A stretch of DNA of 64,000 bases from Syntrophorhabdaceae bacterium (GTDB taxonomy: Bacteria; Desulfobacterota; Syntrophorhabdia; Syntrophorhabdales; Syntrophorhabdaceae): NCBI GenBank assembly GCA_963665295.1, contig OY762209.1, positions 800,001 to 864,000 of the forward strand. The letters are read 5' to 3'. Each line of letters starts with the position of its first letter. The first letter of the stretch is position 1. Below the pieces are notes generated by a model. That model was not told where the DNA came from, ran no database searches, and worked only from the letters and a program-made list of their open reading frames with translations. Position numbers and translations under genes: made by a program. Below are positions 3,787 to 32,594 of the stretch, one piece after another.

Positions 3787-4620
3787 ATGAATACTGATTC
3801 AAGATTGGTTTCCATGACACTCGACCAGGTGCGCGCCGCTGCACCTTCCGTATTTGCGGATCACCCGTGGGAAGGGGTTTCAGAGAGATATGCTTTTATC
3901 CCTACCTCGTCGGTGGTTGAATCCCTTACAGCCGAGGGATGGAATATCACAGCGGCAAAACAACAAAGGGTACTCTTGGAGGATAGAAAAGCCTTTACCC
4001 GCCATATGCTGCGGTTTCGCCGGGATGATGCCCTTACTCTGGCCGTAGGAGATGTCTTCCCCGAGATAGCCCTTACCAACTCCCATGACAGAGGTTCGGC
4101 TTACCGGATGGATGCCGGATTATTCCGTCTCGTATGCACCAACGGCCTTGTGGTGGACGACGCCACTTTCGCAAGACTTTCTATCAGACACGCAGGGAAC
4201 GTGCTTGATGATGTCCGAAAGGGAGCGGACGACATTGCAAAAGAACTTCCAAGGATCATGGGAGAGGTCCGCGACATGCAGACCATAGAGCTTAGCCCTG
4301 ACGAAAGAGGAGTATTCGCAAAAGCCGCCATGTCCCTTAAATTTGATGAGTCGATACCCGTTGAACCGTACCAGGTCCTTGCCGCAAGGCGATATGGTGA
4401 TCAAAACTCAGACTTGTGGACCACTTTCAACGTAATCCAGGAAAACGTAACGAAGGGCGGCTTAAGGTATGTACTCCCCGCCCACACCACCGAGGACGGC
4501 ACCCGCGTTCGAGCCAGAAGAGCAAGGACCCGAGAGGTCAAAAGTATCCGGGAAGACACGAAGCTCAACAAGGCCCTTTGGATGCTGGCCGAGGAGATGA
4601 AACGGTTGAAGGTGGTCTGA
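3787..4620 (+). CDS. DUF932 (YafZ/YfjQ/YubP-like) mobile-element protein
   Basis: APSVFA...SERYAFIPT, NSHDRGSAY, GLFRLVCTNGLV, DLWTTFNVIQEN, LNKALW motifs; AGGAGG RBS. Confidence 0.9.
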   Translation: MNTDSRLVSMTLDQVRAAAPSVFADHPWEGVSERYAFIPTSSVVESLTAEGWNITAAKQQRVLLEDRKAFTRHMLRFRRDDALTLAVGDVFPEIALTNSHDRGSAYRMDAGLFRLVCTNGLVVDDATFARLSIRHAGNVLDDVRKGADDIAKELPRIMGEVRDMQTIELSPDERGVFAKAAMSLKFDESIPVEPYQVLAARRYGDQNSDLWTTFNVIQENVTKGGLRYVLPAHTTEDGTRVRARRARTREVKSIREDTKLNKALWMLAEEMKRLKVV

Positions 4621-4959
4621 CTATAAGCCCACCCGTGGGCATTGTACGCGGGCCGGACCCTTACGGGTCCGTAGTCTAGGCCTAAGATCCGCGCACACAA
4701 TACCAAGCGAGACCTAGGAGGGAAAGCCGATCTGTCTGCGCCGAGGTTTCCAGAAGGGGGTTTTGGTGTGTCCGAACCGTGACACGGATGACTGAAAAAC
4801 ACTGGACTAAACGGGGAGAATGAAAATTAATGCTCCGATGACGAATCCGTCACAAAAATCAAAATAGTTAGGCTCTTTAGCTGCAGTAGCAAACTAATGG
4901 GCTTAGATCGTTGCAAAAGCGAAATACGGATTGAATTTTACCGTTTGTTACATTTTTGC

Positions 4960-4988
4960 TTGAACTAAAATATCGAATGTATGATAAT
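4960..4988 (+). promoter_or_regulatory. Putative sigma-70 promoter of the PRTase / HD-KaiC operon
   Basis: TTGAAC-17 nt-GATAAT in an AT-rich intergenic stretch. Confidence 0.4.
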
Positions 4989-5183
4989 CACCAATAGTAT
5001 AATAAGAGCTATTAGCGTGGGAAAAGGGCGGAAAGGTTCAAAGAGCTAACATACCCCCGACCTTTCCCATCCGTTACACCTGCCGAGACCAGGCCAAAAA
5101 AAAGGTTGAGCAGCAGAGGACCGGGCTGTTGTTGTGCTGATCAAATAGTCTACTGCTGAACGTGCTTGTTTCCGGGAGTTGGG

Positions 5184-5236
5184 GTCTGCTGATAGAGGAG
5201 TCGTTTTTCCTCTATCAGCAGACAGAATCCTTTTTT
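5184..5236 (+). terminator. Perfect 16-bp hairpin with downstream T-tract in the operon leader (terminator or attenuator)
   Basis: GTCTGCTGATAGAGGA-8 nt-TCCTCTATCAGCAGAC, then AGAATCCTTTTTT. Confidence 0.55.
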
Positions 5237-5420
5237 CCTTAAAGTCCGTTTCTAAGAGAAACCTGTTTGCTCACGTCGATCTTCTTTTTTGGGGTCTCGA
5301 GAGACGTGCCGTAACGGACAAAGAGAAAGGCGGATCGGGCAACCAGATGTTGCTTTGTTGGTTGGGGAGTTCTCTGCGGCAGATCGTCTATTCGGTGATC
5401 CGAAACAACGAGGATGCTCG

Positions 5421-6020
5421 ATGGAAACAGTACTGACGATAGTCTTTGGTATTATTGGTGGCGTTGGCGCAGCGCTCACCGTCTACTACGGCCGAAAATC
5501 AGCTCGTCTTGAGCGCGAGCGTGAGACGCTCTCTTGGAATGACGTGCAACTCGCCGCTGACGACCTCGCAGAGGACATCCGCAAAAGCCGGTTCCAACCG
5601 CAATTCATACTTGCTCTTAACACACGTGGCGGAATTATTGCCGAATTTGTCGCGCAGAATATGGCCGATTCTTTGCCCATAGTGGTGGGCATTACGGAGT
5701 GGAGAGATTTTGGCTATAATGCATATGATCTGAAGCAGTACGATTCGTTTGAAACAACCAAATGGCGCGTATCCATCCCTTTAACGGTCTATGACAATAC
5801 AGACAAGAACGTATTGATTGTAGATGATCTGGTCATGTCCGGAGATGCGATGGAGGAAGCCCGGAAAAGACTTGCGGAGAGGGGATTTACGAAAGATGCA
5901 ATCAGGACTGCCGCCATTGTAGTCACCGACGTGGCAATCAAAACCCATAAGGCGCCGGACTACCATTGGCGCCAGACTGATTCGTCGAGTTTCTATTTTC
6001 CATGGGGTAAAGCACGTTGA
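5421..6020 (+). CDS. Type I phosphoribosyltransferase-fold protein with an N-terminal transmembrane helix
   Basis: METVLTIVFGIIGGVGAALTVYY hydrophobic N-terminus; SWNDV, TRGGII, PRPP loop VLIVDDLVMSGDAM, C-terminal FPW (Gpt/Hpt-like). Start placed at ATG 5421 after GAGG. Confidence 0.85.
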   Translation: METVLTIVFGIIGGVGAALTVYYGRKSARLERERETLSWNDVQLAADDLAEDIRKSRFQPQFILALNTRGGIIAEFVAQNMADSLPIVVGITEWRDFGYNAYDLKQYDSFETTKWRVSIPLTVYDNTDKNVLIVDDLVMSGDAMEEARKRLAERGFTKDAIRTAAIVVTDVAIKTHKAPDYHWRQTDSSSFYFPWGKAR

Positions 6021-6139: not shown

Positions 6140-9100
6140 ATGGACTCAGATGAAGTGAACTTCGAGATGAACGATGATAGGCACAGGGCTGTTTGGGACC
6201 AATTTTGTAACGGCGATCCAGGCCAAATAGATTTCAAGAACTATCAGAGTGTCCTTGAGACTCTCCTTGAAGACACCGATGCCGATCTGTACCCACAGTA
6301 TCGTAAGATCAAGGAGTTGATGCATGATGCGTACGAAAACGAGGATTTGCGCCTCCACTTTATCGACAAGAAGGATCATTCTCACGAAAATCGTATCCTC
6401 AATTATCTGGACAGATTCCTGTTTGAAGCCGGCCCCGTCGATGAAGCAGGAAAGTCCTTCCCCGTAGTAAAGCTTACGCCGGAACGCATCTTTGTGCTCC
6501 TCTGCGCAGTACAACTCCACGATTATGGCAAAACCCGCTGGCAGCTAACGATCTACTCCTTGATTAAGGACGTTGCGGATTGCATGAAGGATAATGATAA
6601 CAAATTATTCGTCAAGTACAACGAAAATGGTCAGATTCTTTTGACTATAAAGGCCAGGGCCAAGGATTTGCACGACGAAACCGAACAGTCTGACCTAAAG
6701 AATCTGGCGAAGCAGTTATCGGATCTCCACAGCTTGATGGATGCGGTCGATATAAATGACCTGGACATAGATGCTTTTGGACGCATAGAGGACTACCATT
6801 CGCACAACATACGCCATTTCTTGGACGCGATCATTGAGGCCAAAGACCCGAAGAAGCTGAAAAAGGGCTTCAAGGGAAAAGATTTTGTCCTTAGACATAT
6901 TATTCCAGGTGGCACTGATGAGGATAAGGCAGAAGCGAAGCTGGTCGACCACTTGGGCTCCTTAGACAATAAGCATCTGGAAAGGATCAAGTCCATAGCG
7001 AGTGCCCATAAACCCTTCAAGCGTCGTGAAGGCAAGGATGGGGTGGAAGACTGGTACTATAATCAAGCGGAAGACGAAGACAGATGGCTTTGCGCTTTGC
7101 TGCGCCTTTGCGACTCCCTCGACATGGACAGACGGAGAGTGATCGAGAAGAAAAAGAGAGATCTCACCTATCTGCTCGATGAATACTATAAACAGAAAAC
7201 GCCTAATGGAGAGGTGGTGGACGATAACAGGTTGCGCGTTTTTGCTATCTGGACCAGGTTTCTGTTGGTAAAGGAAATAGGCATTCTCCATTCGAACGAA
7301 GACAAGAAGAAACACCGTATTGACATATTGCTAACCTACTATCAATTCCCGAACGCAGACAAGTATTTCTTCCCCCTCCGTCACATGGTCGAAAAGGATT
7401 TCATGAATAAGAAATTCCTGCTCGACATACTGGATGATGGCCAGGGAAAGACAGGGGGTCTGAGAATAAACCTAATGTACCGTATTCTCATGGAAGAAAA
7501 CCCGGACTATCCGGCCATCAATATAGATGACAGAATGGGTAAAATATTCGAGAAGGCTGCGAACAAACATCCGACCCCGGATATCCGCGAGAATGGTGAG
7601 CCCGACAACCCGGTGAGAAAACACTTTACCCCGATCTCGGAAGACGATCTAAGGTTCGTAGCCTTTGAGCGTGACGCCATTGAGCTGATCGGTGAACCTG
7701 ACGAAGACAAGAAGTATCTTTATCTTCCCAACTCTCTCAACCTCTATTCTTTTCTTAACCATTTCAAGGACGGCGATAGGATATCGCCCGAACCGCTGTC
7801 GAGACACCTCTTTTCCAATTCCAAGGTAAATCCACTCAGTCATAACTATCTAAGAGACAATATAATTCGCCAGGCTGGCAATCTTCAGGAATACGTATTT
7901 GATGGACGCGTGCTGGAGATCATGGGTCCTCTTTTCCGCGTCGCGTATCGTCATCCTATTCTCCTTAAGAGCAAGATTGATGAAATAGAGAAGTTTCAGC
8001 ACATTATGCCATTCTCTAGAATGGATGGACCGAAACGTATTTCCAGCGGGATACCCGGCCTTCAGGAAGTGATCTCAGATTCGGAAGCTGGGGGAGGGAT
8101 AGTGCATTCAAGAAACATCCTGATTAAGGGCGGACCAGGAACGGGCAAAACGACAATAGCACTCCAGATCTTTCAGGAGAACTTGAAAGATAACTACCCA
8201 AGGTTCGCCGGGAGGCAGGTCCTTTATATAACCTTTGAAGAAAATCCGACGAGGATTGAGACGGAGTGCCGCAAGTGCTTTGGATGGTCAATCGAAAAAC
8301 ACCGGATATTGCAGCTCAGGATGAAGGAAGGCAACTTCCAGATGAGCGCTTCACAAGATTTACATTCAGAAGAAAACGCCAGGTTGGCTGCCAAGATTTT
8401 CATGAACATCGTGGATGACTACCATGCGGAAGTATTGTTTGTCGACAGCCTGAACCAGCTCTGCTCATTCTTGAGGAGTAAGGAGATTGATGGCAAGAAG
8501 GCGATAAAGTACATATTTGATGAGATGGAAATGCAGCACATAACTGCCTTCTATCTCCTTGAAGACGAAGAAGAAAACAGTTTTGAAGAGTACGCCGCGG
8601 ACGGGATCATCTATCTTGAAAACAAGAGGGGCAAAAGAACACTGGAAATACGTAAGTTGAGGATGCAGAAGTTCGTCCCAGGCAAGCACAGCTTCAGAAT
8701 AATGGATACCGCCGCACTAAAGGGTAAGCAGGAGATCGAAAGTAAGTGGCTGCAGCCGGGGGTCAATCTTTTTCCCAACGTAGAAACCTATGCCGAGCGG
8801 ACGTACGCCGAAATACCTCACGATTCAAGCCAGCGGATAGTCAAGACCGGCATCGAGGGGCTCGATGGACTGCTCCCCATTTCACCTGAGAGACCAAAGG
8901 AGGGGGGCTATCTCAGGGGCAGCGTTGTTCTCGTCATAGGAAGCCCCGGCAGTGGCAAAACAATATTCGGACTACAATTCGCCAAGCAGGGGATAATGGA
9001 GAAGAAGGAAGAGGGGAAATGCCTTTGGATCAGCTTTGAGGGCGGAAGAGCTGAGCTCCAGTTTGCTGTCGGGAGATTTCACCCGGGCCTCAGATTTAAC

Positions 9101-11746
9101 GAGATATTCAGCGATGAGGAGAAGTTTCTGTTTCGCTATTTCCCGCCGGCCCACTGCGACCCCGATGAACTGATCTATCTGATCCACAGGATTGTAAAGC
9201 CGGTGGATCATAAAGTCAGCAGAATTGTAATAGACAGTGTTTCTGAACTGGAAGAGTTGTTTGACGATAAGAATAGTTTCAAGAACTATATGGCCACCTT
9301 GATTCATGAATTGAAGCAACTAAATGTGACTACCATCTTTCTTTACCGTTCACCCGAGTTTTTCGGGTTTCAAAGGCGCACTAGCACGGTGATCTCCTCT
9401 CTTGTTGATACCATCATATCCATTAAGACCTTCGATATAAAAAACAGGATCAAGAAGGGGCTCTTCGTGTTGAAATCACGTGGCCGAGAACAGAAAAGCA
9501 ATCTCCAGACTATGGAGATTCTTTATGACAAGGGGATTGTGGTCTCGGATAGGGGCTGGGAACTGGAAGGACTCCTTGGAGGAGAGACAGGCGAAATTAA
9601 GGAACCCTATATCTTTCTCAAGCTTTTTTATGAGAATGCAGCAGAAACGAAGATTAACGACTATCTCATTAAGGATTTCAGGGAACGCTACCCCATGAGA
9701 AGCAACAGGCTCTTTGCAACTGTCAGAAAACCCCATATCTATCATGAGTTCTGGAGTTTCAAAGGGAATTACGGGGCGGGACACGCCAATATTCGCATCG
9801 TTTCACTTAACAAATATATGGTTGAAGCCTTTCGGGAAAACGACCGCCTCCACATTCTTGACGGATACTTTTCCAGCTCCCTTAAGGAAGAGATTGAGTC
9901 TGACATAAGATACAACAAGTACTACAACAAGGATAGAAGATTTGATTTTCTGCCCAGCTACAGTGATTTCGGTGTGCTCGTCTTCCAAAAGCATCTGGCA
10001 GAGAAAGCTCAGCCCGAGACCAAAGTAAAGGTCGAAGACAGCAGTTGGGGAGAAATCATCAAAACTCTCACGCCTCTGTGTGAAAGATTGAACACACAAC
10101 CGGACGGGAAGAACGTTTTCTACACTTTTGCCATGCCGCCCCTCGACAACATGACTGAGTTTGTGGCCTTCTTCATGGAGGTTCTCTGGAGCCACGGCGG
10201 TGATCTTTACTGGTTTCCTCCCTTTTCCGAGAGATTGCACGAACCTTCAAGTAACAGGCTTTCCTTCTATAAGCGCATGATTCTCAGGAATAAGCCATTG
10301 CGAAAAGAAGTGGAGTCTTTGATCAAAAACCTTGACCCTAAGGTGCCTGCAAACAAGATTACAATAGATGCAGTGGAGAAGACCCTTAGCGATTTTGCCA
10401 AAGACAGGTACGATATTCCTAACATGATAAGAATCAACGACCAAGAGGCAAAAGGAGCGATGGAGTTCATGTGTGATCTTGTCATCAATGGTCACTGTCC
10501 CAGTCCGGCCCAAGGCGATTTTAGACCCTATGCCCTCATATCGAGAAAGTGGTACAGCGAAGTGACAGAATTTCAGAGACACGTCTCATCGATCAAGTGT
10601 GGCCAAGAGGAGCGCTACAAGCTCTTCAGGGACGGGGTCAAGAAGGAAAGCCCCAAAGACACTAAAGGTGCCGACAACAACCCACCAGCTCTGGAACTCC
10701 ATAAGTTACCTTATTGCAGAGAGACCTTGAAAAGTGTTACGAACCAGGGCATATGGTGTCTGGGCATAATCAAAGAGGCACTTTCCCCCGAAATAGGATG
10801 GATATTCATAGATACCATGGTATCGCCCGAAATACGAAGGATGCGAGCAGTGGAGAAACTCGGCTTCCCTATCAAAATAGAAGACATTCGCTCCGACACA
10901 TACTCATGGGCGGACAAGGATGTCTATGACAAGGTGGCTTCCATCATGGAAACCGATACTGTTCTCGATCAAAAGACGGATAATCTGGCGGTACTCTTTT
11001 ATCTGGACTATGATCGGAAGGACCTGAGTGAGAGGGATCCGTTTGATGAAGCAGTGGAATACCTTGGGAAAGCGAACTGCGACGAGCACCAGATAGGGGA
11101 TATTATCCGTCAACTGCTAGAGGCGTTTCACAAGATTACGGAAAACAAGGTTCTTGCCGACTTAAAGAAGAGACTGGAAACAGGTGGCCGGGAGCAGAGA
11201 ACAATTGATGTGACCGAGGAGGACTTTCTCCTTCAAGATCCTGACGCGGCCAGAATTGAAGGCAAAGTGGATGGGTATCTCATAAAACAGTTCGTACGCC
11301 TCTATCGTGAGAGCGAAACAGACGATTCCAGGGGTACGAGGGCGAACCTGGAGACAATTATCAGAGAAAAGTCAGAAGTGGATATCAACAACTTCATTGA
11401 ACAGGAAAAAAAGAAACTATCTGACAAGATAATCCGTCTCTTCAAGTTTTTTTATAGTGCAACGGATGGCCATTTAGGCCCGATAAGCTCGGCAGAGCAG
11501 GTCGAAAGCTTCATTCGCGAAAACAAATGCACTTTCAACTACGGAAAAGTCGAAAAGCAGCCGATATACTGCTCGAAGCTGGCGGCGAACCGGCCCTATT
11601 TCTATCGTTTTGAACCGATCATTCATAAACACGTCAAGAGACTGTTCCCGGATACGGGAAGCCCCAAGAAGGAACTGATCAACGAGGTGCTCGACTCCAT
11701 GAGACAAGAGATGATTCTGGAAGTATTCAGCAATCCCGGACTGTGA
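6140..11746 (+). CDS. 1868-aa fusion: HD-CE-like phosphohydrolase, two KaiC/RecA-like ATPase domains, and a cytoplasmic sugar-ABC-type solute-binding domain
   Basis: HD motifs (DHSHENRIL, QLHDYGK, ALLRLCDSLD); Walker A GGPGTGKT and GSPGSGKT; YITFEE, VIDSV, ISSLVDTII, LKSRG. MalE/UgpB-like motifs (LPSYSDFGVLVFQKHL, SWGEI, VLWSHGGDL, AMEFMCDLV, GIWCLGI, GWIFIDTMVSPE). Confidence 0.85.
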   Translation: MDSDEVNFEMNDDRHRAVWDQFCNGDPGQIDFKNYQSVLETLLEDTDADLYPQYRKIKELMHDAYENEDLRLHFIDKKDHSHENRILNYLDRFLFEAGPVDEAGKSFPVVKLTPERIFVLLCAVQLHDYGKTRWQLTIYSLIKDVADCMKDNDNKLFVKYNENGQILLTIKARAKDLHDETEQSDLKNLAKQLSDLHSLMDAVDINDLDIDAFGRIEDYHSHNIRHFLDAIIEAKDPKKLKKGFKGKDFVLRHIIPGGTDEDKAEAKLVDHLGSLDNKHLERIKSIASAHKPFKRREGKDGVEDWYYNQAEDEDRWLCALLRLCDSLDMDRRRVIEKKKRDLTYLLDEYYKQKTPNGEVVDDNRLRVFAIWTRFLLVKEIGILHSNEDKKKHRIDILLTYYQFPNADKYFFPLRHMVEKDFMNKKFLLDILDDGQGKTGGLRINLMYRILMEENPDYPAINIDDRMGKIFEKAANKHPTPDIRENGEPDNPVRKHFTPISEDDLRFVAFERDAIELIGEPDEDKKYLYLPNSLNLYSFLNHFKDGDRISPEPLSRHLFSNSKVNPLSHNYLRDNIIRQAGNLQEYVFDGRVLEIMGPLFRVAYRHPILLKSKIDEIEKFQHIMPFSRMDGPKRISSGIPGLQEVISDSEAGGGIVHSRNILIKGGPGTGKTTIALQIFQENLKDNYPRFAGRQVLYITFEENPTRIETECRKCFGWSIEKHRILQLRMKEGNFQMSASQDLHSEENARLAAKIFMNIVDDYHAEVLFVDSLNQLCSFLRSKEIDGKKAIKYIFDEMEMQHITAFYLLEDEEENSFEEYAADGIIYLENKRGKRTLEIRKLRMQKFVPGKHSFRIMDTAALKGKQEIESKWLQPGVNLFPNVETYAERTYAEIPHDSSQRIVKTGIEGLDGLLPISPERPKEGGYLRGSVVLVIGSPGSGKTIFGLQFAKQGIMEKKEEGKCLWISFEGGRAELQFAVGRFHPGLRFNEIFSDEEKFLFRYFPPAHCDPDELIYLIHRIVKPVDHKVSRIVIDSVSELEELFDDKNSFKNYMATLIHELKQLNVTTIFLYRSPEFFGFQRRTSTVISSLVDTIISIKTFDIKNRIKKGLFVLKSRGREQKSNLQTMEILYDKGIVVSDRGWELEGLLGGETGEIKEPYIFLKLFYENAAETKINDYLIKDFRERYPMRSNRLFATVRKPHIYHEFWSFKGNYGAGHANIRIVSLNKYMVEAFRENDRLHILDGYFSSSLKEEIESDIRYNKYYNKDRRFDFLPSYSDFGVLVFQKHLAEKAQPETKVKVEDSSWGEIIKTLTPLCERLNTQPDGKNVFYTFAMPPLDNMTEFVAFFMEVLWSHGGDLYWFPPFSERLHEPSSNRLSFYKRMILRNKPLRKEVESLIKNLDPKVPANKITIDAVEKTLSDFAKDRYDIPNMIRINDQEAKGAMEFMCDLVINGHCPSPAQGDFRPYALISRKWYSEVTEFQRHVSSIKCGQEERYKLFRDGVKKESPKDTKGADNNPPALELHKLPYCRETLKSVTNQGIWCLGIIKEALSPEIGWIFIDTMVSPEIRRMRAVEKLGFPIKIEDIRSDTYSWADKDVYDKVASIMETDTVLDQKTDNLAVLFYLDYDRKDLSERDPFDEAVEYLGKANCDEHQIGDIIRQLLEAFHKITENKVLADLKKRLETGGREQRTIDVTEEDFLLQDPDAARIEGKVDGYLIKQFVRLYRESETDDSRGTRANLETIIREKSEVDINNFIEQEKKKLSDKIIRLFKFFYSATDGHLGPISSAEQVESFIRENKCTFNYGKVEKQPIYCSKLAANRPYFYRFEPIIHKHVKRLFPDTGSPKKELINEVLDSMRQEMILEVFSNPGL

Positions 11747-14272: not shown

Positions 14273-15439
14273 ATGCGTCGAGGATCGTCTGGTGATTATG
14301 TTACTGTCTCTACGGTCGGGGATGAGCGGGTAAGCGCGTTTGTGCCTCATCCGCTGCCGCCGGTTCCGCCGTTGGCGATCGACGACAACCTTCGTGACCT
14401 CATTGACCGGTCGCTTCTTGCCCTTGGCCGCCTCGATGGAGTTACCGCGCTGCTTCCCGATACCCGGCTCTTTCTTTATATGTACGTCCGTAAGGAAGCC
14501 GTATTGTCATCTCAAATAGAAGGCACCCAGTCTTCTCTTTCCGATCTTTTGCTCTTCGAGATCAAGCAAGCCCCCGGTGTTCCGCTTGGCGATGTGGTGG
14601 AGGTATCGAACTATGTCGCCGCCCTTGAACATGGCCTTTCTCGCTGTAGGGACGGCTTTCCCCTATCGAATCGACTGATAAAGGAAATACATGGAGTTCT
14701 GCTGCGAGAAGGGCGAGGCAGTGACAAATCGCCGGGAGAATTTCGCCGGTCCCAGAATTGGATAGGAGGCACGAGGCCTGGAAACGCCTTCTTTGTGCCA
14801 CCGCCACCCGACAGAATAGCCGATACAATGGGCGCTCTGGAATTGTTCCTTCATGATCAGCCCGTGAAGACTCCTGTCCTCATAAGAGCGGCACTCGCAC
14901 ATGCTCAGTTCGAGACCATCCACCCATTCCTTGACGGGAACGGAAGAGTCGGGAGACTTCTCGTGCCCCTTCTGCTGTGCATCGAAGGTATACTGAAGGA
15001 GCCGCTCCTCTATCTCAGCCTTTATTTCAAGGCCCATAGAGCCCAATACTATGATCTTCTTAACGGCATTCGCACTGAAGGGGATTGGGAGGCGTGGGTC
15101 TCGTTCTTTTTGGAGGGCGTGCGCCAGATGGCGGAAAGCGCCGTAATAGCGGCCCGTCGTCTGGCGGACATGATTGCGCGCGATCGTGAACGCATTCAGC
15201 GTCTGGGGCGCATTGCAGGTTCTTCCTTGCAGGTGCATCAGGCTCTCCAGGCAAGGCCCATCGCCACCATTGCGTCTCTTTCCTCCGAGACGGGTCTCTC
15301 AATGCCCACGGTAACCAAAGCCGTTCAGGCGCTTGAAGACGGAGGATTCGTAACGGAAATAACAGGCCGACGGAGGGGAAAGATTTACAATTACGGGGAA
15401 TACATGGATATCATGAATGAGGGGGCCAACCCGGAATAG
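14273..15439 (+). CDS. Fic-family protein with Fic_N domain and C-terminal winged HTH
   Basis: EAVLSSQIEGTQ, GEFRRSQNWIG, HPFLDGNGRVGR. Confidence 0.95.
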   Translation: MRRGSSGDYVTVSTVGDERVSAFVPHPLPPVPPLAIDDNLRDLIDRSLLALGRLDGVTALLPDTRLFLYMYVRKEAVLSSQIEGTQSSLSDLLLFEIKQAPGVPLGDVVEVSNYVAALEHGLSRCRDGFPLSNRLIKEIHGVLLREGRGSDKSPGEFRRSQNWIGGTRPGNAFFVPPPPDRIADTMGALELFLHDQPVKTPVLIRAALAHAQFETIHPFLDGNGRVGRLLVPLLLCIEGILKEPLLYLSLYFKAHRAQYYDLLNGIRTEGDWEAWVSFFLEGVRQMAESAVIAARRLADMIARDRERIQRLGRIAGSSLQVHQALQARPIATIASLSSETGLSMPTVTKAVQALEDGGFVTEITGRRRGKIYNYGEYMDIMNEGANPE

Positions 15440-15522: not shown

Positions 15523-15864
15523 GCGCCATGGTCCGGCCGGTGCCCTTCGACGTATGGGAATATACGCCTGCGGTCCTCCTATGCTCCCCTGACACCACAT
15601 CCGGACCTTCCGGCCAATTCCACCCTCCACAGCAGGCGGCTCAAAGAGCTCATTTTGGTCAATTGGGGCAGGGGTTTGTTGTTGGGAAAGATATTTCTTG
15701 CAAAGTAATTGCAAATAATTGGAAAATAAGGGAGGAGGGGCATAGCTAATCTCCCCCAAAATGAGGTTCTGAATTTCTATAAAAGTGGCCGATAGAGGAT
15801 GTTATACAGAACTATTTTCTGTATATTTACTTGTTTGAAGTGAATTTATATCTTGGAGAAAGCT

Positions 15865-18387
15865 ATGAGCACAATCGTCCAGAACGTCAATGTTCATGTC
15901 AGTCATTCCGACATTCAATTCCTTAAATGGCTTCACATATCGGACTTACATTTCGGTCAGGGCAGATACGCCCATAGTCGCGTTGATCAGGAAATGGTCG
16001 TCGAAGAACTTCTTCACGACGCCACCCAAGTGAGAAAACTAATCGGTTCACCCGACTTCGTCTTCCTCACCGGAGACGTAGCGTTCAGCGCGGACCCCGC
16101 CGAGTATGCCGTAGCAGCGGCATGGACTGATCGACTACTTGAGCAGTTGGGCGTGGACCAGGAGAATTTGTACATCGTCCCAGGCAATCACGATGTAGAT
16201 CGCCGAAGAGCCTTGGATGGACCGACGCATAGGTTCATCCACACCGGGCTAAGACAGACTCCTGAGACGATTGATGACTATCTTGCTAGGCCAACTGAGT
16301 TGGAACAACTCTGGACAAAACTCAAGGCTTTCTCTGACTTCGCGAGGCCATATGGGCCAGTCCAGGTGTCTTACGACTTCCCGTTCTGGACGCACGCAGT
16401 TGATACACTAATGGGCCCCGTCGAGATCGTGGGTCTCAATACAGTCCTATTGAGCTTTGACGATGCAGACCGCGGTTCTCTGACTGTCGGTAAACACCAA
16501 CTCAAGGTCCTGCAAGACCGACAGCGGTTTCGCATAGTGCTTCAGCATCATCCACCTCAATGGCTGCGCGATGGCGACGAACTGAACAAAATACTAAGTA
16601 CTCGCCCACATGTTCTCCTGTGTGGCCACATTCACGAACAACAGGTCCAGGCTATTACCCCTATGGCACAAACCGGACTTCTGCGGTTCGTGGGAGGATC
16701 CGGTCATGAAGACGCAGCACGCCCTCTGCATGCGTACAACTGGGGGCGCGTATCCTCGGAAGGAATCGATTGGTTCCCCAGGCTGTGGAACCACAAGACC
16801 CGTTCGTTTGGGCCGGACTATTCGAATCCAAGCGTTGGTCGTGATCAGTACATCAGGTATACTCGTGAAGATATCCGGGCCTACTCACCTGCGACATTTG
16901 CGTGGCTTCCGGGACGGGATTCCTTTGTCCTGACGCATGTCGAGAGTTGGATAGCGGACAGCCGTGGGCAGTGGCATTTGACGACCGAGAAACCTGTGAA
17001 GGTGACGAAGGATTCTCTACCAGGAATCCTCGACGGACTCCGTGCTGCCGCAGAGGATGCGAACGTCAGCTACGTTGGGTCTGGCGACGACAATAGTTTA
17101 ATCTTCTCTGGTTCGGAGGATGGGTACGATACGCTAAGGCGGTCTCTTGAGTCCGACAGGCAGGCGCTATGCGAGACGCTGGGATTCGAGATCACCCGGA
17201 TTGACAGGGTACAGGGCGCAACTGTGCGGGCATCGGTTTCACAGGATCCTGGAGAGAGTCCACCAAGCCACTCTAAACCGTGGATATCCACGAGCGAGGA
17301 GTTCGTTCCTCCTTTGATTCGCGGATGCAGCATTAATCCGTCTCTGTCGACGGTATCTTTTATTATCGACACGGGAGATAAGGGGAAGCAAATCGACAAG
17401 GAGGAGTTCCAAACTCTGGTAAGTTACTTTTTCTCCTCCTTGTCGTTTCCAGAGGACGACTTTTGGGTTAATCTGTCGGCATATGAGAGCAGAAGAATGA
17501 TCCCACAGGCACTAGGGAGGACCAAGCTTGGTCGAGACATGCTAGCCCAAGACTGCGTTCTGAAGAAGCTGTGCGCCTCGCTTCTGCATCCATCTACCCC
17601 TACAGGTCAGCGGTACTGGGCAGAATTCCATTCGAGGGTGTGCACTTCAGATGGTGCCGCGAGTTGCTTCCAGAAGGTATGGATGCAACCAAAAGTCGCC
17701 ACAGTCTACGAAAAGCCGGCGGGAAAGGAAGAGCCTCAGTTAGAGGGGAACCTCAAAGTTCCCAAAGACCACAGCTTGGCGTATGTGTGTGAAGCCGAAA
17801 TCGGTATTTTCTGTGAGGAGGATGTCATTGCTGCTCACGCGGAATCCGCAAGTGGTGAGCCAGCTTTAGAATCTCGCCGCGCTCACGCCGCTCTCTTTCG
17901 GGATCTCATCGTGCCGGTCATCCATCGGGAAGTGAACAACGGCAGGAACTTCAGTGCAATGCGTCAGATATATAACGCAATGATCCTGGCGACGTGGTTC
18001 CGACTCAGCCATGGAAAGAGCCAGCACTCGCCTTCTTTCATTGGGAGCCGCGATAGTTCACTCGTCTTTGCGACGACAGGCGACCACTCTTTTGTCAGAG
18101 GGGAAAGCAGTATTATCTCTGATGGTTCCATGCAGATAGCCACATCTAACGACGGCATAGACCTCAACGAGTTGTACTACCAAGAGTACCTTCAGCTCTT
18201 CAGGGAAGGGCTTCGACAGACCGAACAGATCGTAGACGTAACCACCGGCCAAGTGACCAGAAGAACATATATGTCCGGCAGATCGGACTTGACGGAAATC
18301 GCGATTCGCTCAACATCATTTCCTTTCGGGCTTCGTTCTTTGCCGCTTCACTGCATAACGGTTCAGGTGAGGGAAGGGGACGGGTAA
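15865..18387 (+). CDS. Calcineurin-like metallophosphoesterase fused to an uncharacterised C-terminal domain
   Basis: SDLHFG, TGDVA, PGNHDV, QHHP, CGHIH motifs. C-terminal FWVNLSAYE...LGRDMLAQD...EVNNGRNF...RQIYNAMILATW...RTYMSG. Start at ATG after GGAGA. Confidence 0.85.
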   Translation: MSTIVQNVNVHVSHSDIQFLKWLHISDLHFGQGRYAHSRVDQEMVVEELLHDATQVRKLIGSPDFVFLTGDVAFSADPAEYAVAAAWTDRLLEQLGVDQENLYIVPGNHDVDRRRALDGPTHRFIHTGLRQTPETIDDYLARPTELEQLWTKLKAFSDFARPYGPVQVSYDFPFWTHAVDTLMGPVEIVGLNTVLLSFDDADRGSLTVGKHQLKVLQDRQRFRIVLQHHPPQWLRDGDELNKILSTRPHVLLCGHIHEQQVQAITPMAQTGLLRFVGGSGHEDAARPLHAYNWGRVSSEGIDWFPRLWNHKTRSFGPDYSNPSVGRDQYIRYTREDIRAYSPATFAWLPGRDSFVLTHVESWIADSRGQWHLTTEKPVKVTKDSLPGILDGLRAAAEDANVSYVGSGDDNSLIFSGSEDGYDTLRRSLESDRQALCETLGFEITRIDRVQGATVRASVSQDPGESPPSHSKPWISTSEEFVPPLIRGCSINPSLSTVSFIIDTGDKGKQIDKEEFQTLVSYFFSSLSFPEDDFWVNLSAYESRRMIPQALGRTKLGRDMLAQDCVLKKLCASLLHPSTPTGQRYWAEFHSRVCTSDGAASCFQKVWMQPKVATVYEKPAGKEEPQLEGNLKVPKDHSLAYVCEAEIGIFCEEDVIAAHAESASGEPALESRRAHAALFRDLIVPVIHREVNNGRNFSAMRQIYNAMILATWFRLSHGKSQHSPSFIGSRDSSLVFATTGDHSFVRGESSIISDGSMQIATSNDGIDLNELYYQEYLQLFREGLRQTEQIVDVTTGQVTRRTYMSGRSDLTEIAIRSTSFPFGLRSLPLHCITVQVREGDG

Positions 18388-19821: not shown

Positions 19822-21342
19822 TCACGGAGCCCTCGCCCCATTGCGATACAGTGCCGCCTGTGCCGTCATGGTATCCGACACCAGAAGCGTCTCCAGGAAC
19901 TTCCGTGGATCGTTCCCTTGCCTCATGGAAGTAATGATGAGACTCGGCAGGATACTGTGGGTCTTCAGTCCCGTTGCCGACCGCGTACCGAACATGAGCT
20001 TCCTCATGATCACCAGGAAGCGGATCGACTGTTCTGCCTGGTTGTTGGTAGGTGGTACTCCCGGATAGCGAAGGAACGTGAAGAGAAACTTCCGGTCTTT
20101 GCCGGTAAGGAAGGTACGGAGCCCTTCCGCCGGCTTATACTTGAGGGGCTTTGCACATATCTTCCCGAGGGTTGCTCTCAATTGCTTCTCGATGCGGGGA
20201 GCATCTCCCCACTCTCTCTTTCCCTTAAGAAGATCCCCGCCCGCGGCGCAGGCATCCGAGAAGAGCCTCCCGACCGCATCACAGAACGCCTCCGCTTTTG
20301 TATCTCTTGTCTCCATGAGGACGAGCTCCCGGGTCAACTCCCTGGCCCTGGTGATAAGGTGGGCAAGGCATGTCTGCCTTTCTCTCGCATGAACTCCGTT
20401 ATACGCGGCATAGCGGTCGGTGATGAGCACCCCGTCGAAGTTGTCCCCGAGAAGATGTTGAGCCACGTCTGTCGAGCGGTGCCGGTCGATATGGAAGAGG
20501 GCAAGATCGGCGTTTCCCGCATACCACGCGTAATGACCGGTCCCGTCGTTCCTCCATGATGTCTCATCGGCATGAACTATTTCCGAGGCGCGTATCTTCT
20601 CCCGGAGGTCTTCATAAAGAGGTGTCCCCCTTTTCGCCGCAGCCCTGTCAAACCCCACTGCCGAAGCAGGGACAAAGGCAAGGCCGAAGATCTCCCTCAT
20701 AACTTCCTCTACCTTTCGATAGCTCATACCTATCCTGTACCGCAAGTATAAGGCAACGGATTTCGTAACCGGTCCGATAGGAGCATTCGGAAGTTCGTCG
20801 GGAGCCGCCTTCACCACAGAACGCCCGCAACGGCTACAGTATGCTTCCTTATGCACATACCGTCTCACCACCGTGCGGGGTCTTATGACAATGTCTTCCT
20901 GCACATGCTCACGGATCCCTTCCCCGGGGACAAGAGGGCCTGACCCGCAATGGGGGCATCGATCGGGAGCGGGCACGTGAACCGTCGCATCCACGCGGGC
21001 AGGCTCGGGCCTGAACCACCCGGGGTGTCCGACCGGAGCGCCGCGCTTCCTCCCTGCCAAAGAGACCGCATGCTCCGGTTTTTTGTTCGCCTTGAACTGT
21101 CTTCGATGCAATGCGGTATTCTTCGCCTTCAGTTCCTCGTTCTCCTTCTCTAAAAGACGGATACGCTTCATGGTGTCATCCAGCCTGTCCCGGAACACAT
21201 CGATAATCCGAAGATGCTCTTCGTACACCTCATGGGCCCGCTCATATTCTCCAAAGACCCATAGGGTGGAGAGAAAGTTAAGATGGGGGCAATTGTCCTT
21301 ATAAAGACAATCGTAGCCGTATGGAGGATAGACCCTCTTCAC
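19822..21342 (-). CDS. tnpC: IS66-family DDE transposase
   Basis: Coiled coil, CPHCG/CSRCG zinc ribbon, HADETSW, ITDRY, CLAHL, PTNNQAEQSIR. Confidence 0.95.
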   Translation of the reverse strand: MKRVYPPYGYDCLYKDNCPHLNFLSTLWVFGEYERAHEVYEEHLRIIDVFRDRLDDTMKRIRLLEKENEELKAKNTALHRRQFKANKKPEHAVSLAGRKRGAPVGHPGWFRPEPARVDATVHVPAPDRCPHCGSGPLVPGEGIREHVQEDIVIRPRTVVRRYVHKEAYCSRCGRSVVKAAPDELPNAPIGPVTKSVALYLRYRIGMSYRKVEEVMREIFGLAFVPASAVGFDRAAAKRGTPLYEDLREKIRASEIVHADETSWRNDGTGHYAWYAGNADLALFHIDRHRSTDVAQHLLGDNFDGVLITDRYAAYNGVHARERQTCLAHLITRARELTRELVLMETRDTKAEAFCDAVGRLFSDACAAGGDLLKGKREWGDAPRIEKQLRATLGKICAKPLKYKPAEGLRTFLTGKDRKFLFTFLRYPGVPPTNNQAEQSIRFLVIMRKLMFGTRSATGLKTHSILPSLIITSMRQGNDPRKFLETLLVSDTMTAQAALYRNGARAP

Positions 21343-21770: not shown

Positions 21771-23291
21771 TCACGGAGCCCTCGCCCCATTGCGATACAG
21801 TGCCGCCTGTGCCGTCATGGTATCCGACACCAGAAGCGTCTCCAGGAACTTCCGTGGATCGTTCCCTTGCCTCATGGAAGTAATGATGAGACTCGGCAGG
21901 ATACTGTGGGTCTTCAGTCCCGTTGCCGACCGCGTACCGAACATGAGCTTCCTCATGATCACCAGGAAGCGGATCGACTGTTCTGCCTGGTTGTTGGTAG
22001 GTGGTACTCCCGGATAGCGAAGGAACGTGAAGAGAAACTTCCGGTCTTTGCCGGTAAGGAAGGTACGGAGCCCTTCCGCCGGCTTATACTTGAGGGGCTT
22101 TGCACATATCTTCCCGAGGGTTGCTCTCAATTGCTTCTCGATGCGGGGAGCATCTCCCCACTCTCTCTTTCCCTTAAGAAGATCCCCGCCCGCGGCGCAG
22201 GCATCCGAGAAGAGCCTCCCGACCGCATCACAGAACGCCTCCGCTTTTGTATCTCTTGTCTCCATGAGGACGAGCTCCCGGGTCAACTCCCTGGCCCTGG
22301 TGATAAGGTGGGCAAGGCATGTCTGCCTTTCTCTCGCATGAACTCCGTTATACGCGGCATAGCGGTCGGTGATGAGCACCCCGTCGAAGTTGTCCCCGAG
22401 AAGATGTTGAGCCACGTCTGTCGAGCGGTGCCGGTCGATATGGAAGAGGGCAAGATCGGCGTTTCCCGCATACCACGCGTAATGACCGGTCCCGTCGTTC
22501 CTCCATGATGTCTCATCGGCATGAACTATTTCCGAGGCGCGTATCTTCTCCCGGAGGTCTTCATAAAGAGGCGCCCCCCTTTTCGCCGCAGCCCTGTCAA
22601 ACCCCACTGCCGAAGCAGGGACAAAGGCAAGGCCGAAGATCTCCCTCATAACTTCCTCTACCTTTCGATAGCTCATACCTATCCTGTACCGCAAGTATAA
22701 GGCAACGGATTTCGTAACCGGTCCGATAGGAGCATTCGGAAGTTCGTCGGGAGCCGCCTTCACCACAGAACGCCCGCAACGGCTACAGTATGCTTCCTTA
22801 TGCACATACCGTCTCACCACCGTGCGGGGTCTTATGACAATGTCTTCCTGCACATGCTCACGGATCCCTTCCCCGGGGACAAGAGGGCCTGACCCGCAAT
22901 GGGGGCATCGATCGGGAGCGGGCACGTGAACCGTCGCATCCACGCGGGCAGGCTCGGGCCTGAACCACCCGGGGTGTCCGACCGGAGCGCCGCGCTTCCT
23001 CCCTGCCAAAGAGACCGCATGCTCCGGTTTTTTGTTCGCCTTGAACTGTCTTCGATGCAATGCGGTATTCTTCGCCTTCAGTTCCTCGTTCTCCTTCTCT
23101 AAAAGACGGATACGCTTCATGGTGTCATCCAGCCTGTCCCGGAACACATCGATAATCCGAAGATGCTCTTCGTACACCTCATGGGCCCGCTCATATTCTC
23201 CAAAGACCCATAGGGTGGAGAGAAAGTTAAGATGGGGGCAATTGTCCTTATAAAGACAATCGTAGCCGTATGGAGGATAGACCCTCTTCAC
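21771..23291 (-). CDS. tnpC: IS66-family DDE transposase
   Basis: Identical to copy A except one T-to-A residue (KRGAPLY). Confidence 0.95.
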   Translation of the reverse strand: MKRVYPPYGYDCLYKDNCPHLNFLSTLWVFGEYERAHEVYEEHLRIIDVFRDRLDDTMKRIRLLEKENEELKAKNTALHRRQFKANKKPEHAVSLAGRKRGAPVGHPGWFRPEPARVDATVHVPAPDRCPHCGSGPLVPGEGIREHVQEDIVIRPRTVVRRYVHKEAYCSRCGRSVVKAAPDELPNAPIGPVTKSVALYLRYRIGMSYRKVEEVMREIFGLAFVPASAVGFDRAAAKRGAPLYEDLREKIRASEIVHADETSWRNDGTGHYAWYAGNADLALFHIDRHRSTDVAQHLLGDNFDGVLITDRYAAYNGVHARERQTCLAHLITRARELTRELVLMETRDTKAEAFCDAVGRLFSDACAAGGDLLKGKREWGDAPRIEKQLRATLGKICAKPLKYKPAEGLRTFLTGKDRKFLFTFLRYPGVPPTNNQAEQSIRFLVIMRKLMFGTRSATGLKTHSILPSLIITSMRQGNDPRKFLETLLVSDTMTAQAALYRNGARAP

Positions 23292-23718: not shown

Positions 23719-25239
23719 TCACGGAGCCCTCGCCCCATTGCGATACAGTGCCGCCTGTGCCGTCATGGTATCCGACACCAGAAGCGTCTCCAGGAACTTC
23801 CGTGGATCGTTCCCTTGCCTCATGGAAGTAATGATGAGACTCGGCAGGATACTGTGGGTCTTCAGTCCCGTTGCCGACCGCGTACCGAACATGAGCTTCC
23901 TCATGATCACCAGGAAGCGGATCGACTGTTCTGCCTGGTTGTTGGTAGGTGGTACTCCCGGATAGCGAAGGAACGTGAAGAGAAACTTCCGGTCTTTGCC
24001 GGTAAGGAAGGTACGGAGCCCTTCCGCCGGCTTATACTTGAGGGGCTTTGCACATATCTTCCCGAGGGTTGCTCTCAATTGCTTCTCGATGCGGGGAGCA
24101 TCTCCCCACTCTCTCTTTCCCTTAAGAAGATCCCCGCCCGCGGCGCAGGCATCCGAGAAGAGCCTCCCGACCGCATCACAGAACGCCTCCGCTTTTGTAT
24201 CTCTTGTCTCCATGAGGACGAGCTCCCGGGTCAACTCCCTGGCCCTGGTGATAAGGTGGGCAAGGCATGTCTGCCTTTCTCTCGCATGAACTCCGTTATA
24301 CGCGGCATAGCGGTCGGTGATGAGCACCCCGTCGAAGTTGTCCCCGAGAAGATGTTGAGCCACGTCTGTCGAGCGGTGCCGGTCGATATGGAAGAGGGCA
24401 AGATCGGCGTTTCCCGCATACCACGCGTAATGACCGGTCCCGTCGTTCCTCCATGATGTCTCATCGGCATGAACTATTTCCGAGGCGCGTATCTTCTCCC
24501 GGAGGTCTTCATAAAGAGGTGTCCCCCTTTTCGCCGCAGCCCTGTCAAACCCCACTGCCGAAGCAGGGACAAAGGCAAGGCCGAAGATCTCCCTCATAAC
24601 TTCCTCTACCTTTCGATAGCTCATACCTATCCTGTACCGCAAGTATAAGGCAACGGATTTCGTAACCGGTCCGATAGGAGCATTCGGAAGTTCGTCGGGA
24701 GCCGCCTTCACCACAGAACGCCCGCAACGGCTACAGTATGCTTCCTTATGCACATACCGTCTCACCACCGTGCGGGGTCTTATGACAATGTCTTCCTGCA
24801 CATGCTCACGGATCCCTTCCCCGGGGACAAGAGGGCCTGACCCGCAATGGGGGCATCGATCGGGAGCGGGCACGTGAACCGTCGCATCCACGCGGGCAGG
24901 CTCGGGCCTGAACCACCCGGGGTGTCCGACCGGAGCGCCGCGCTTCCTCCCTGCCAAAGAGACCGCATGCTCCGGTTTTTTGTTCGCCTTGAACTGTCTT
25001 CGATGCAATGCGGTATTCTTCGCCTTCAGTTCCTCGTTCTCCTTCTCTAAAAGACGGATACGCTTCATGGTGTCATCCAGCCTGTCCCGGAACACATCGA
25101 TAATCCGAAGATGCTCTTCGTACACCTCATGGGCCCGCTCATATTCTCCAAAGACCCATAGGGTGGAGAGAAAGTTAAGATGGGGGCAATTGTCCTTATA
25201 AAGACAATCGTAGCCGTATGGAGGATAGACCCTCTTCAC
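23719..25239 (-). CDS. tnpC: IS66-family DDE transposase
   Basis: As in copy A. Confidence 0.95.
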   Translation of the reverse strand: MKRVYPPYGYDCLYKDNCPHLNFLSTLWVFGEYERAHEVYEEHLRIIDVFRDRLDDTMKRIRLLEKENEELKAKNTALHRRQFKANKKPEHAVSLAGRKRGAPVGHPGWFRPEPARVDATVHVPAPDRCPHCGSGPLVPGEGIREHVQEDIVIRPRTVVRRYVHKEAYCSRCGRSVVKAAPDELPNAPIGPVTKSVALYLRYRIGMSYRKVEEVMREIFGLAFVPASAVGFDRAAAKRGTPLYEDLREKIRASEIVHADETSWRNDGTGHYAWYAGNADLALFHIDRHRSTDVAQHLLGDNFDGVLITDRYAAYNGVHARERQTCLAHLITRARELTRELVLMETRDTKAEAFCDAVGRLFSDACAAGGDLLKGKREWGDAPRIEKQLRATLGKICAKPLKYKPAEGLRTFLTGKDRKFLFTFLRYPGVPPTNNQAEQSIRFLVIMRKLMFGTRSATGLKTHSILPSLIITSMRQGNDPRKFLETLLVSDTMTAQAALYRNGARAP

Positions 25240-28917: not shown

Positions 28918-29124
28918 AACATAGGTCCTGCTATCAACGAATTATTGAGAAAATTTTTCGCCTCAAAGAAATAGAAAGATCATTAAAGACCTCAAATTGA
29001 CGTGCTGCCTGATGAATGCGGGCGCTGCAAATATGTGGTCCGATGCGCCGGCGGCTGCCGCAAGCCCTACGGGCTGGTTCAGTACAACGGCAAATTGATC
29101 GATTACTTGGTGGGATTTATTTAA
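28918..29124 (+). pseudogene. Radical-SAM SPASM-domain 3' remnant
   Basis: ...VLPDECGRCKYVVRCAGGCRKP...GFI*: CxxCx5CxGGC motif with in-frame stops upstream; next to the IS630 end. Confidence 0.6.
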
Positions 29125-30545
29125 ATCCTTTTGCTTCCTATCAGAAATTCTCCAACCGATGTCTCGGTGTAGTAGTCGAGCCCTGTCGCCCCGGCAAAAA
29201 GATCGGAATCGGCGCCGCCCAGGGCGCAGGGAGCCAGGTCCATTGCTGTTGCAACAAGGTACATGGTCTGATAGAGAACTCCGACGTTCTTCAGTGTAAG
29301 GTTGTATGCCATGGATTCATACTTCCAAGAGAGACGCTGGAATCTGGCTGCGATGGTAATGAGAATCTGTGGGTTATCATCCATTGCCGCTGAACCCTTG
29401 GCGTCTTTTAACAGCGCATCCGTTGCCTCTGTGGGATCGGATATTTTTTCAAGAACATGCCTATCCGGACGGTAGTGGTACAAGCCTGAGGGGATACCCC
29501 GGCATTCATTCACAATTATATAAAGCTCCAGTTCGTAAATAGCTCCTCCACCCGGATATGGCCGTATGCTCAAATCCTGATATTCATTTTTCCGTATTGC
29601 TTTTACTCTTGCGGTTCGGTAGAGGAATTCTCCGAGCTGGCGCTCGGTAACAGGCTCTTTTGCATATTCCCGGATGGATTTTCTCTCTTCCATGACGAGA
29701 GTGAAGGGGTGATCCTTCTCCCTCAAGGAGTCAATATCGGGTCGGTAGAGTGGAATGGTTTTTTCTCCTGCGGGCGGTTTGATTACAGGCAAAGACTCAA
29801 TTTTATAAAGAAAACGATAGGTGCCGCCATAGGGGTTCGAGTGCCTTCCAAGCCGGCTTCCGGCATGGAAAAGGAGGTCGTGGAAATCCCACTGGACAAG
29901 CGCTTCGTTTTCTTCAGGATATGCAGCGTGCGGTTTTACTTCGCACGCAAAACCGCTGCCGACGAGCATTCGCAAGAAGAGGACGATTGTATCGGACGGC
30001 AAATCCGGCAGCCTGCCGTATAACGAGGCGATGGTCTGCGGTCCGGCCAGTTCAGCGGCAATTACGAAGGTCATCTTTCCGTGCAGGGTGATTGTGCCGT
30101 GGGCAAGAGGAGATTCCATGACCATCTCCTGCCTTTTCCGGTGAATGTAAGCAAACCGGGAAAGAATGTATTCTGCCTCGGGATTGACAGGCTCAGGAGA
30201 AAAACTGAAAGAGGCGGATGCAGGACAAAGAGTGGCAAATCGTTGTCCGTTACAGTCAACGCTGTAACACAGAATCCGGTGTTCGGTGAAGATCTTCAAT
30301 AAGTAGTAGAGCTTCGGAAGTACACCCGTACCATCTTTTTCCAGAACATTGCCGGCAAGTTTGTCTTCTGTTGCCCCGGTCGAGGCAAGAATGTCGATGG
30401 CATCTCTCAGTCCGGGGGATAGTTCACCAAGGGCAAGTTCCTTGTAAGTGACAGGCATCCCGACAACAATGCGATCCGCCGATGGCGTTTTGACCTCAAC
30501 TCCTTTTACAAAAGAAAGCACATAGTGTACCGGCGGAGAAGTCAT
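29121..30545 (-). CDS. SagB/ThcOx-type FMN-dependent azoline dehydrogenase
   Basis: WDFHDLLFH, ERKSIREY, RPYPGGGAIYELE, SWKYESMAY, QTMYLVATAMDLAPCALG. Confidence 0.95.
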   Translation of the reverse strand: MTSPPVHYVLSFVKGVEVKTPSADRIVVGMPVTYKELALGELSPGLRDAIDILASTGATEDKLAGNVLEKDGTGVLPKLYYLLKIFTEHRILCYSVDCNGQRFATLCPASASFSFSPEPVNPEAEYILSRFAYIHRKRQEMVMESPLAHGTITLHGKMTFVIAAELAGPQTIASLYGRLPDLPSDTIVLFLRMLVGSGFACEVKPHAAYPEENEALVQWDFHDLLFHAGSRLGRHSNPYGGTYRFLYKIESLPVIKPPAGEKTIPLYRPDIDSLREKDHPFTLVMEERKSIREYAKEPVTERQLGEFLYRTARVKAIRKNEYQDLSIRPYPGGGAIYELELYIIVNECRGIPSGLYHYRPDRHVLEKISDPTEATDALLKDAKGSAAMDDNPQILITIAARFQRLSWKYESMAYNLTLKNVGVLYQTMYLVATAMDLAPCALGGADSDLFAGATGLDYYTETSVGEFLIGSKRI

Positions 30546-32568: not shown

Positions 32569-32594
32569 ATTACATTTCCGGGATAACGTGTCTC

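Follow-up and report, generated by a model that had tools for sequence, protein, structure and literature searches.

A probably cytoplasmic protein joining a metallophosphoesterase and a TRADD-N-like domain to a homologue of an Omnitrophota head module

Bacterial TRADD-N proteins, as set out in the main text of Kaur et al. (2021, eLife, PMC8195603), are built from a variable N-terminal effector (TIR, a calcineurin-like phosphoesterase or others), the TRADD-N domain and a C-terminal domain; those named there for the C-terminal position are pentapeptide, TPR, HEAT, STAND, caspase, PAS, GUN4, bDLD3 and HTH. By the same account the TRADD-N domain has an RRM-like fold related to the ACT and dystroglycan domains, with a conserved motif of a tiny residue and serine (uS) in the β2-β3 turn. 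At the other end of the spectrum of size stand the giant proteins of Omnitrophota, termed 'Archaeovorins' in the main text of a preprint by West-Roberts et al. (2023, 10.1101/2023.11.21.568195), where their N-terminal regions are said to 'generally lack identifiable domains', and the 'multi-enzyme' long proteins of Omnitrophota treated in the main text of a 2026 preprint (10.64898/2026.06.07.730766). The gene considered here, at 15865..18387 (+) of a 64,000-nucleotide stretch of a Syntrophorhabdaceae genome (positions 800,001 to 864,000 of contig OY762209.1, assembly GCA_963665295.1; hereafter the window), meets both. By architecture its product belongs to the TRADD-N class; it shares only its metallophosphoesterase (MPE) with the DS-8 and PDC-S60 families, and only its C-terminal domain of about 340 amino acids, called X in what follows, with the large Omnitrophota proteins in which X is the 'head'. 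No description of X was found in the main texts of either Omnitrophota preprint or of the other literature covered, the supplements and source data of which may list the architecture, and no paper joining 'Omnitrophota' and 'TIR domain' came up in the literature search.

The open reading frame (ORF) is real and intact. It encodes 840 amino acids plus a stop in the ORF list, which is also the length of its database form (P0002), and a ribosome-binding site, GGAGA at 15855..15859 (+), can be read from the sequence 5 nt upstream of the start codon (ATG, 15865). Initiation at a TTG in the same frame at 15853 (+) would add four residues, and residue numbers throughout follow the 844-residue read that begins there (P0001). 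Given that alignment with an 842-residue, 70%-identical orthologue (P0003) reaches within four residues of the C-terminus, the gene has not been truncated by the insertion sequence (IS) elements downstream. The 840-residue protein has no hydrophobic segment, transmembrane helix or signal peptide (maximum 19-residue Kyte-Doolittle mean 1.36) and consequently looks cytoplasmic. Three modules make it up: an intact MPE, an RRM-fold TRADD-N-like domain and the C-terminal X, homologous to the Omnitrophota head. The TRADD-N-X pair stays constant while the N-terminus alternates between TIR and MPE among relatives; the gene itself, present once in its genome, has been acquired and lies in a defence island. 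From these features the product is probably a cytoplasmic conflict protein of the TRADD-N type known from bacteria, uniting sensor, adaptor and effector in a single chain.

The effector domain lies at 15928..16701 (+; amino acids 26-283), as delimited by Pfam, NCBIfam, PADLOC and PDB matches and by its motifs. Calcineurin-like MPEs are marked by the motif set DxH, GD, GNH[DE], H and GHxH, and all five metal-binding motifs are present: DLH (31-33), GD (74-75), GNHD (111-114), HH (232-233) and GHIH (258-261). Pfam Metallophos (PF00149) matches amino acids 26-262 with 45.1 bits against a gathering threshold of 21.5. The original prediction for this gene, made from its letters and translation, had named a complete calcineurin-like MPE, and rightly so. 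It had further held that such MPEs are common effectors in conflict systems, and this agrees both with the main text of Kaur et al. (2021; PMC8195603), where a calcineurin-like phosphoesterase is one of the effectors listed for the N-terminus of TRADD-N proteins, and with two matches made by the N-terminal part of the protein, to NCBIfam DS8_antiphage (NF053861; E 2.5e-25, profile positions 1-250 of 994) and to PADLOC PDC-S60 (PDLC05051; E 5.8e-27, profile positions 1-257 of 1027). The homology to DS-8 and PDC-S60 is one of the MPE domain, the remainder of the protein being unrelated to either.

The nearest PDB sequences to the whole protein are SbcD (4lty, E 6.4e-5) and the cyclic nucleotide monophosphate (cNMP) phosphodiesterase Rv0805 (2hy1, E 5e-4), both matched through the MPE only, and these solved enzymes speak for a housekeeping or signalling phosphoesterase, engaged in DNA repair or cyclic-nucleotide turnover and fitted with a regulatory tail, in place of a conflict protein. 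The SbcD/Mre11 nucleases and class III cNMP phosphodiesterases do share with the window protein the MPE fold family and the metal-binding motifs, but the similarity is weak (E 6e-5 to 5e-4) and confined to the first ~100 residues, and, unlike SbcD/Mre11, the window protein has neither an SbcC/Rad50 partner nor a capping domain. Such a role would also sit poorly with the gene's distribution and company. X occurs once in the source genome, a single 5.5-Mb contig, and is absent from all 300 further genomes sampled from the phylum, seven of them from the same family, so that the gene is foreign to the host lineage and has been acquired; the gene lies between a SoFic gene and IS elements in a defence island; and its closest relatives in X carry TIR in place of the MPE. 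A housekeeping function is thus very improbable.

Between the MPE and X, where a mere linker had been supposed, the protein holds the TRADD-N-like adaptor domain (16945..17253, +; amino acids 365-467), with the element order β-α-β-β-α-α-β. A region of about 100 residues right before X is common to the proteins with C-terminal X, and in three of them (P0010, P0062 and P0078) it reaches Pfam TRADD-like_N (PF20694) with 29-31 bits against a cut-off of 23.7; amino acids 365-467 are therefore homologous to domains that match PF20694, the window protein itself differing from that class in being too divergent for the Pfam model. The window domain is an RRM-like two-layer α+β sandwich with a four-stranded sheet, and the sequence V-G-S-G stands in its β2-β3 turn (between model strands 52-56 and 61-66), in the place and form of the uS motif; G-S or S-G likewise occurs in this turn in relatives whose turn is short, for example P0004, P0007, P0010, P0035, P0062 and P0168. 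The order of effector (26-283), TRADD-N-like domain (365-467) and C-terminal domain (X, 478-814) is that of the TRADD-N class. As far as the main text of Kaur et al. (2021; PMC8195603) describes that class, the window protein is like it in this order, in the G-S turn and in the exchange of effectors among close relatives, and differs from it in its C-terminal domain, since X lies outside those named there.

Domain X (17284..18294, +; amino acids 478-814) is presumed to be the sensory or regulatory module. The nine C-terminal motifs listed in the original prediction are all found, and in the stated order: PPLIRG at 486, FIIDTGD at 503, WVNLS at 538, LGRDMLAQD at 559, FQKVW at 606, EVNNGRNF at 693, MRQIYN at 703, YYQEYLQLF at 775 and RTYMSG at 804. 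The resemblance proposed with them, that this motif order recurs in an unnamed domain of Omnitrophota proteins, was borne out on both counts. X is homologous to the Omnitrophota modules at E 1e-32 to 1e-57, and it fits no characterised family: searches of Pfam (E<=10), NCBIfam, PADLOC and PHROGs gave no family match for X, its Omnitrophota members matched nothing in Pfam or NCBIfam either, the ESM Atlas returned no usable match either for X or for the P0006 segment spanning TRADD-N and X, and no PDB sequence matched X convincingly, whether the query was the single sequence or a profile of 48 rows. Structure prediction followed by a fold search, proposed as a check, led to the same result, as the AlphaFold2 model of X (predicted local distance difference test score, pLDDT, 76.3; predicted template modelling score, pTM, 0.77) has no clear fold match in the PDB; the structural comparison took in the BPI/PLUNC-type lipid-binding fold. 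Prohibitin, the sole PDB match of the 48-row profile (E 0.78), was rejected as a relative.

Within X, a variable, low-confidence loop at 18013..18159 (+; amino acids 721-769; pLDDT <50 at model residues 272-293) is the site of TPR insertion in relatives. TPR arrays recognised by Pfam separate the two halves of X at this loop (X residues ~252-300) in P0005, P0007, P0035, P0064 and P0168, and X seems to tolerate, or to use, an extra recognition module there.

X is abundant and, by the names attached to its sources, overwhelmingly a domain of Omnitrophota. With X alone as the query, 1.84 billion cluster representatives yielded 7,166 matches at E<=1e-3, of which 4,589 reached E<=1e-30. Word-indexed searches, which covered 36 matches of 464-1,477 amino acids and 21 of 1,478-4,220, bore source names with an organism in ten cases, nine of them Omnitrophota or Omnitrophica and the tenth 'bacterium'. 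At least 617 stretches encoding X were found when one genome was scanned for each GTDB species, and among the 80 best loci 55 are titled Omnitrophota or Omnitrophica and three Ca. Zapsychrus or Ca. Aceula (placed by NCBI in Omnitrophota), 58 in all; the others are 18 of 'uncultured Planctomycetales', three of Ca. Elulimicrobium (one metagenome-assembled genome) and one of 'uncultured Bacteroidales'. One genome with the title 'uncultured Planctomycetales' (G304) was itself sampled as belonging to the phylum of a genome titled Omnitrophota. The three Ca. Elulimicrobium loci (L021, L028 and L042) belong to an assembly that NCBI places in Elulimicrobiota (Patescibacteria group), and reflect either a difference of labelling or the presence of the family in a second phylum. 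Four Omnitrophota-labelled genomes hold 78, 40, 39 and 8 copies and the Bacteroidales-labelled bin 1, and among 151 genomes sampled from the phylum of the Omnitrophota-titled genome G301 X is present in 15; X is consequently lineage-restricted and hugely expanded where it is present.

In the Omnitrophota-type proteins X is not the conserved core that had been supposed for the giants of that phylum; it is an N-terminal module behind a signal peptide. Its start falls at a median of residue 39, an N-terminal hydrophobic segment precedes it in 126 of 169 proteins, and among 203 proteins whose placement was assigned X is N-terminal in 183 and C-terminal in 20. That the carriers are very large holds in so far as they are large, with open frames of 315-7,487 amino acids, but giants are not the only carriers. 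Behind the head comes exchangeable cargo of unrelated kinds, with HEAT repeats, PGK, PFK, TIM, enzymes of NAD synthesis, GGDEF and radical SAM among others, and the last ~75 residues (in P0043, P0082 and P0156, for example) form a tail of the form 'GGID(L/M)N ... DGF.PVIINI.PV.NLPLLLG', found in 79 of 177 X-headed proteins with a regular expression and, with a hidden Markov model (HMM) of the tail at E<=1e-3, in 138 of all 206 proteins searched. A simple hydrophobicity scan mistakes this tail for a transmembrane helix. The large and giant exported proteins of Omnitrophota thus have in common with the window protein the ~340-residue X and its invariant residues, and differ from it in nearly everything else: there X is N-terminal after a signal peptide, whereas in the window protein it starts at amino acid 478 and there is no signal peptide; there the 'GGID...PVIINI' tail closes the chain, whereas the window protein lacks it; there X is nearly free of cysteine (154 of 163 have none), whereas the window X has 8 Cys in 365 residues; and there a genome holds 8-78 copies, whereas the window genome holds one. 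Three matches classed as viral in IMG/VR (L160-L162) consist of an Omnitrophota-type X only, at 30-32% identity, without the TRADD-N part.

The proteins with C-terminal X stand apart from this exported majority. They have no signal peptide, and their N-terminus is TIR in 14 of the 22 scanned and MPE in P0003, P0007 and P0010. In an unrooted tree of 192 X cores (FastTree, LG+gamma, 297 columns), drawn from the biased sample of the 150 best matches and the word-search matches, one clade of 29 tips unites all 23 C-terminal-X proteins with six N-truncated fragments that retain a TRADD-N remnant; its SH-like support is 1.0 and its stem measures 0.39 substitutions per site. (Midpoint rooting was discarded, as the root fell inside the clade, and the unrooted split was used.) The MPE forms fall at three separate places among the TIR forms of the clade, and the effector has thus been swapped on a constant TRADD-N-X chassis. 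Cysteine makes up 0.55-2.56% of X in all 29 members (median 1.45%), whereas the median for Omnitrophota-type copies is 0; the contrast, whose test value is inflated by the relatedness of the sequences, fits a cytoplasmic location of the former and an exported location of the latter. The tail HMM finds none of the 29 at E<=10. Identity of clade members to the window protein is 26-34%, the exceptions being P0003, the 70% orthologue, and two further members of its cluster.

These figures bear directly on how the fusion arose. According to the original prediction a defence effector had received the Omnitrophota domain in a rare transfer, which, if recent, would have created this particular protein. 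The overwhelming restriction of X to Omnitrophota, the single copy in the window genome and its absence from the rest of the phylum sample favour such an event. To judge by the relatives of the electron transfer flavoprotein alpha gene in the window, moreover, the host looks like a syntroph-type Desulfobacterota and not like a member of Omnitrophota, and syntrophs of this kind share anoxic habitats with Omnitrophota; the gene is indeed foreign to its host lineage. The fusion, however, is no one-off: at least 29 cluster representatives have TRADD-N-X and form one divergent clade, and the fusion must consequently predate the window gene by far. Further, as the X tree is unrooted, Omnitrophota could equally be the recipient of X. 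A search with the window TRADD-N region of five multi-copy Omnitrophota genomes, run without a positive control, gave no match. That a recent transfer made this fusion is accordingly improbable.

Neighbours of the clade genes were sought in metagenomes. None of the 69 pattern stretches matched in a scan with the whole protein belongs to a relative; a scan with the alignment A2 returned 78 loci, of which L082, L083 and L084 are the only ones with clear effector-TRADD-N-X genes. A further locus, L136, has a stop in the matched frame. At L082 a TIR-TRADD-N-X gene (800-2812) is followed after 30 nt by a gene for a DUF4062-STAND(NACHT-like)-TPR protein (2842-5718), which is the two-gene layout of TRADD-N and STAND-TPR described for some proteins in the main text of Kaur et al. 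(2021; PMC8195603). The order at L084 is a ThsB-type TIR gene, the TIR-TRADD-N-X gene, a gene for an 8xMP membrane protein and a TPR-CHAT gene; the neighbours at L083 are uninformative.

For a conflict protein of this class the following course of events may be envisaged. X, as the sensing or regulatory module, would bind a ligand or partner through a pocket of invariant polar residues, and binding would change the assembly state of the protein through X and the TRADD-N adaptor. The change of assembly would then switch on the N-terminal MPE, presumably a nuclease or nucleotide phosphodiesterase, which might destroy nucleic acid or nucleotides of the invader or of the host and so provide immunity of the abortive-infection type. 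In the sister proteins it would be a TIR NADase that this switch sets off.

Several observations weigh against this proposal. At full length the protein stays below the cut-off of every named defence family, DS-8 and PDC-S60 included, its DS8 score being 88.4 bits against a cut-off of 790. The Pfam TRADD-like_N model has no direct match in the whole protein at E<=1 or in amino acids 290-479 at E<=10, and TRADD itself is absent from the 50 best structural rows for the TRADD-N-like domain. No conserved partner gene is visible at the window locus, where IS fragments lie directly downstream; they begin 320 bp past the stop codon, and a downstream partner may consequently have been lost. The neighbourhood evidence from the clade comes from three inspected loci. 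The suggested role in defence draws on domain types and neighbourhood, that of X as a putative sensor on its position and the constancy of the chassis, and the many invariant charged residues of X would be as compatible with an enzyme as with a pocket for binding.

In an alignment of 48 X sequences, with a mean column identity of 39% despite great divergence elsewhere in the proteins, 27 columns are invariant and ~39 nearly so; many of these are polar, and they are kept in exported and cytoplasmic forms alike, the 27 being common to the window protein and the Omnitrophota copies. Among these polar residues (X numbering) are N71, T88, D93, D98, K102, E224, N226, R235 and Q236. X may accordingly itself be an enzyme, acting for example on an envelope precursor or a nucleotide-linked substrate, and the window protein a two-enzyme effector and not a sensor joined to an effector. 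With so many invariant polar residues this is the main alternative, although on balance an unlikely one.

A sensing X also admits a more specific and quite speculative form. Omnitrophota are suspected of preying on other microbes or parasitising them, and X heads dozens of the proteins that they export. The cytoplasmic effector-TRADD-N-X proteins of other bacteria, here of a syntroph-like Desulfobacterota, might be immune receptors against Omnitrophota attackers, in which X would be a built-in copy of the attacker's head. X would then co-assemble with head-bearing proteins delivered into the cell, or compete with them for the same ligand, and thereby fire the MPE or TIR. Plant NLRs carry integrated decoys, of which such a bait would be the bacterial analogue. 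The chance that the proteins work in this way is slender. In a weaker form, the cellular ligand recognised by X could be the same in exported and cytoplasmic proteins, and the latter, being small, would then bring it to light.

The effector-TRADD-N-X protein is a reasonable candidate for a small, tractable model of X, as the original prediction had proposed. The head domain fronts 8-78 large proteins per genome in the four Omnitrophota genomes counted and has no known fold or function; its carriers there belong to organisms that resist culture and are too large to handle. Here the same domain, with its invariant residues, sits inside cytoplasmic proteins of 650-840 amino acids, next to partner domains (TIR, MPE and TRADD-N) with readable outputs in the form of NAD+ loss, nuclease activity and cell death. 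Recognition by the head domain thereby becomes an ordinary problem of expression, pull-down and structure. For the TRADD-N conflict class, in turn, X is a new C-terminal module, one that links the class to a lineage of suspected predators.

Taken as a whole, the window appears to be a patchwork of defence-island genes and mobile elements. A SoFic-type Fic/DOC gene (14273-15439, +; full-length PADLOC SoFic match, E 1.3e-117) lies 414 bp upstream of the gene. At the near edge, and open at it, is a gene for a BrxP-type PAPS reductase together with a PDC-S57-like gene (1-2827, -; BrxP E 6.7e-155), and at the far end is the R subunit of a type I restriction system (61848-63926, -). The mobile component comprises AlpA, five IS66 copies and IS110, IS630 and IS200-like elements.

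The five IS66 copies are 506-residue ORFs on the minus strand (19822-21342, 21771-23291, 23719-25239, 46995-48515 and 55867-57387), read as IS66-family transposases from a Pfam match on one copy and from a comparison of two translations, which differ at one residue; three of them stand head-to-tail ~1,949 bp apart, with a DUF6788-like ORF of 92 amino acids after the first. At 6140-11746 (+), between DUF932 and PRTase genes and AlpA, a protein of 1,868 amino acids has a KaiC-type ATPase core (amino acids 901-1137) and a second P-loop region with weak matches to STAND, GajB and mad8 models. Three genes in a row at 29121-35188 (-), for a YcaO cyclodehydratase (749 amino acids), a HATPase-like protein (566) and a ThcOx-type oxidase (474), are likely a cluster for azoline/azole peptide modification. 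Finally, the electron transfer flavoprotein alpha (ETF-alpha) gene of the window has its best named relatives in Syntrophobacterales (85% identity) and Syntrophorhabdaceae.

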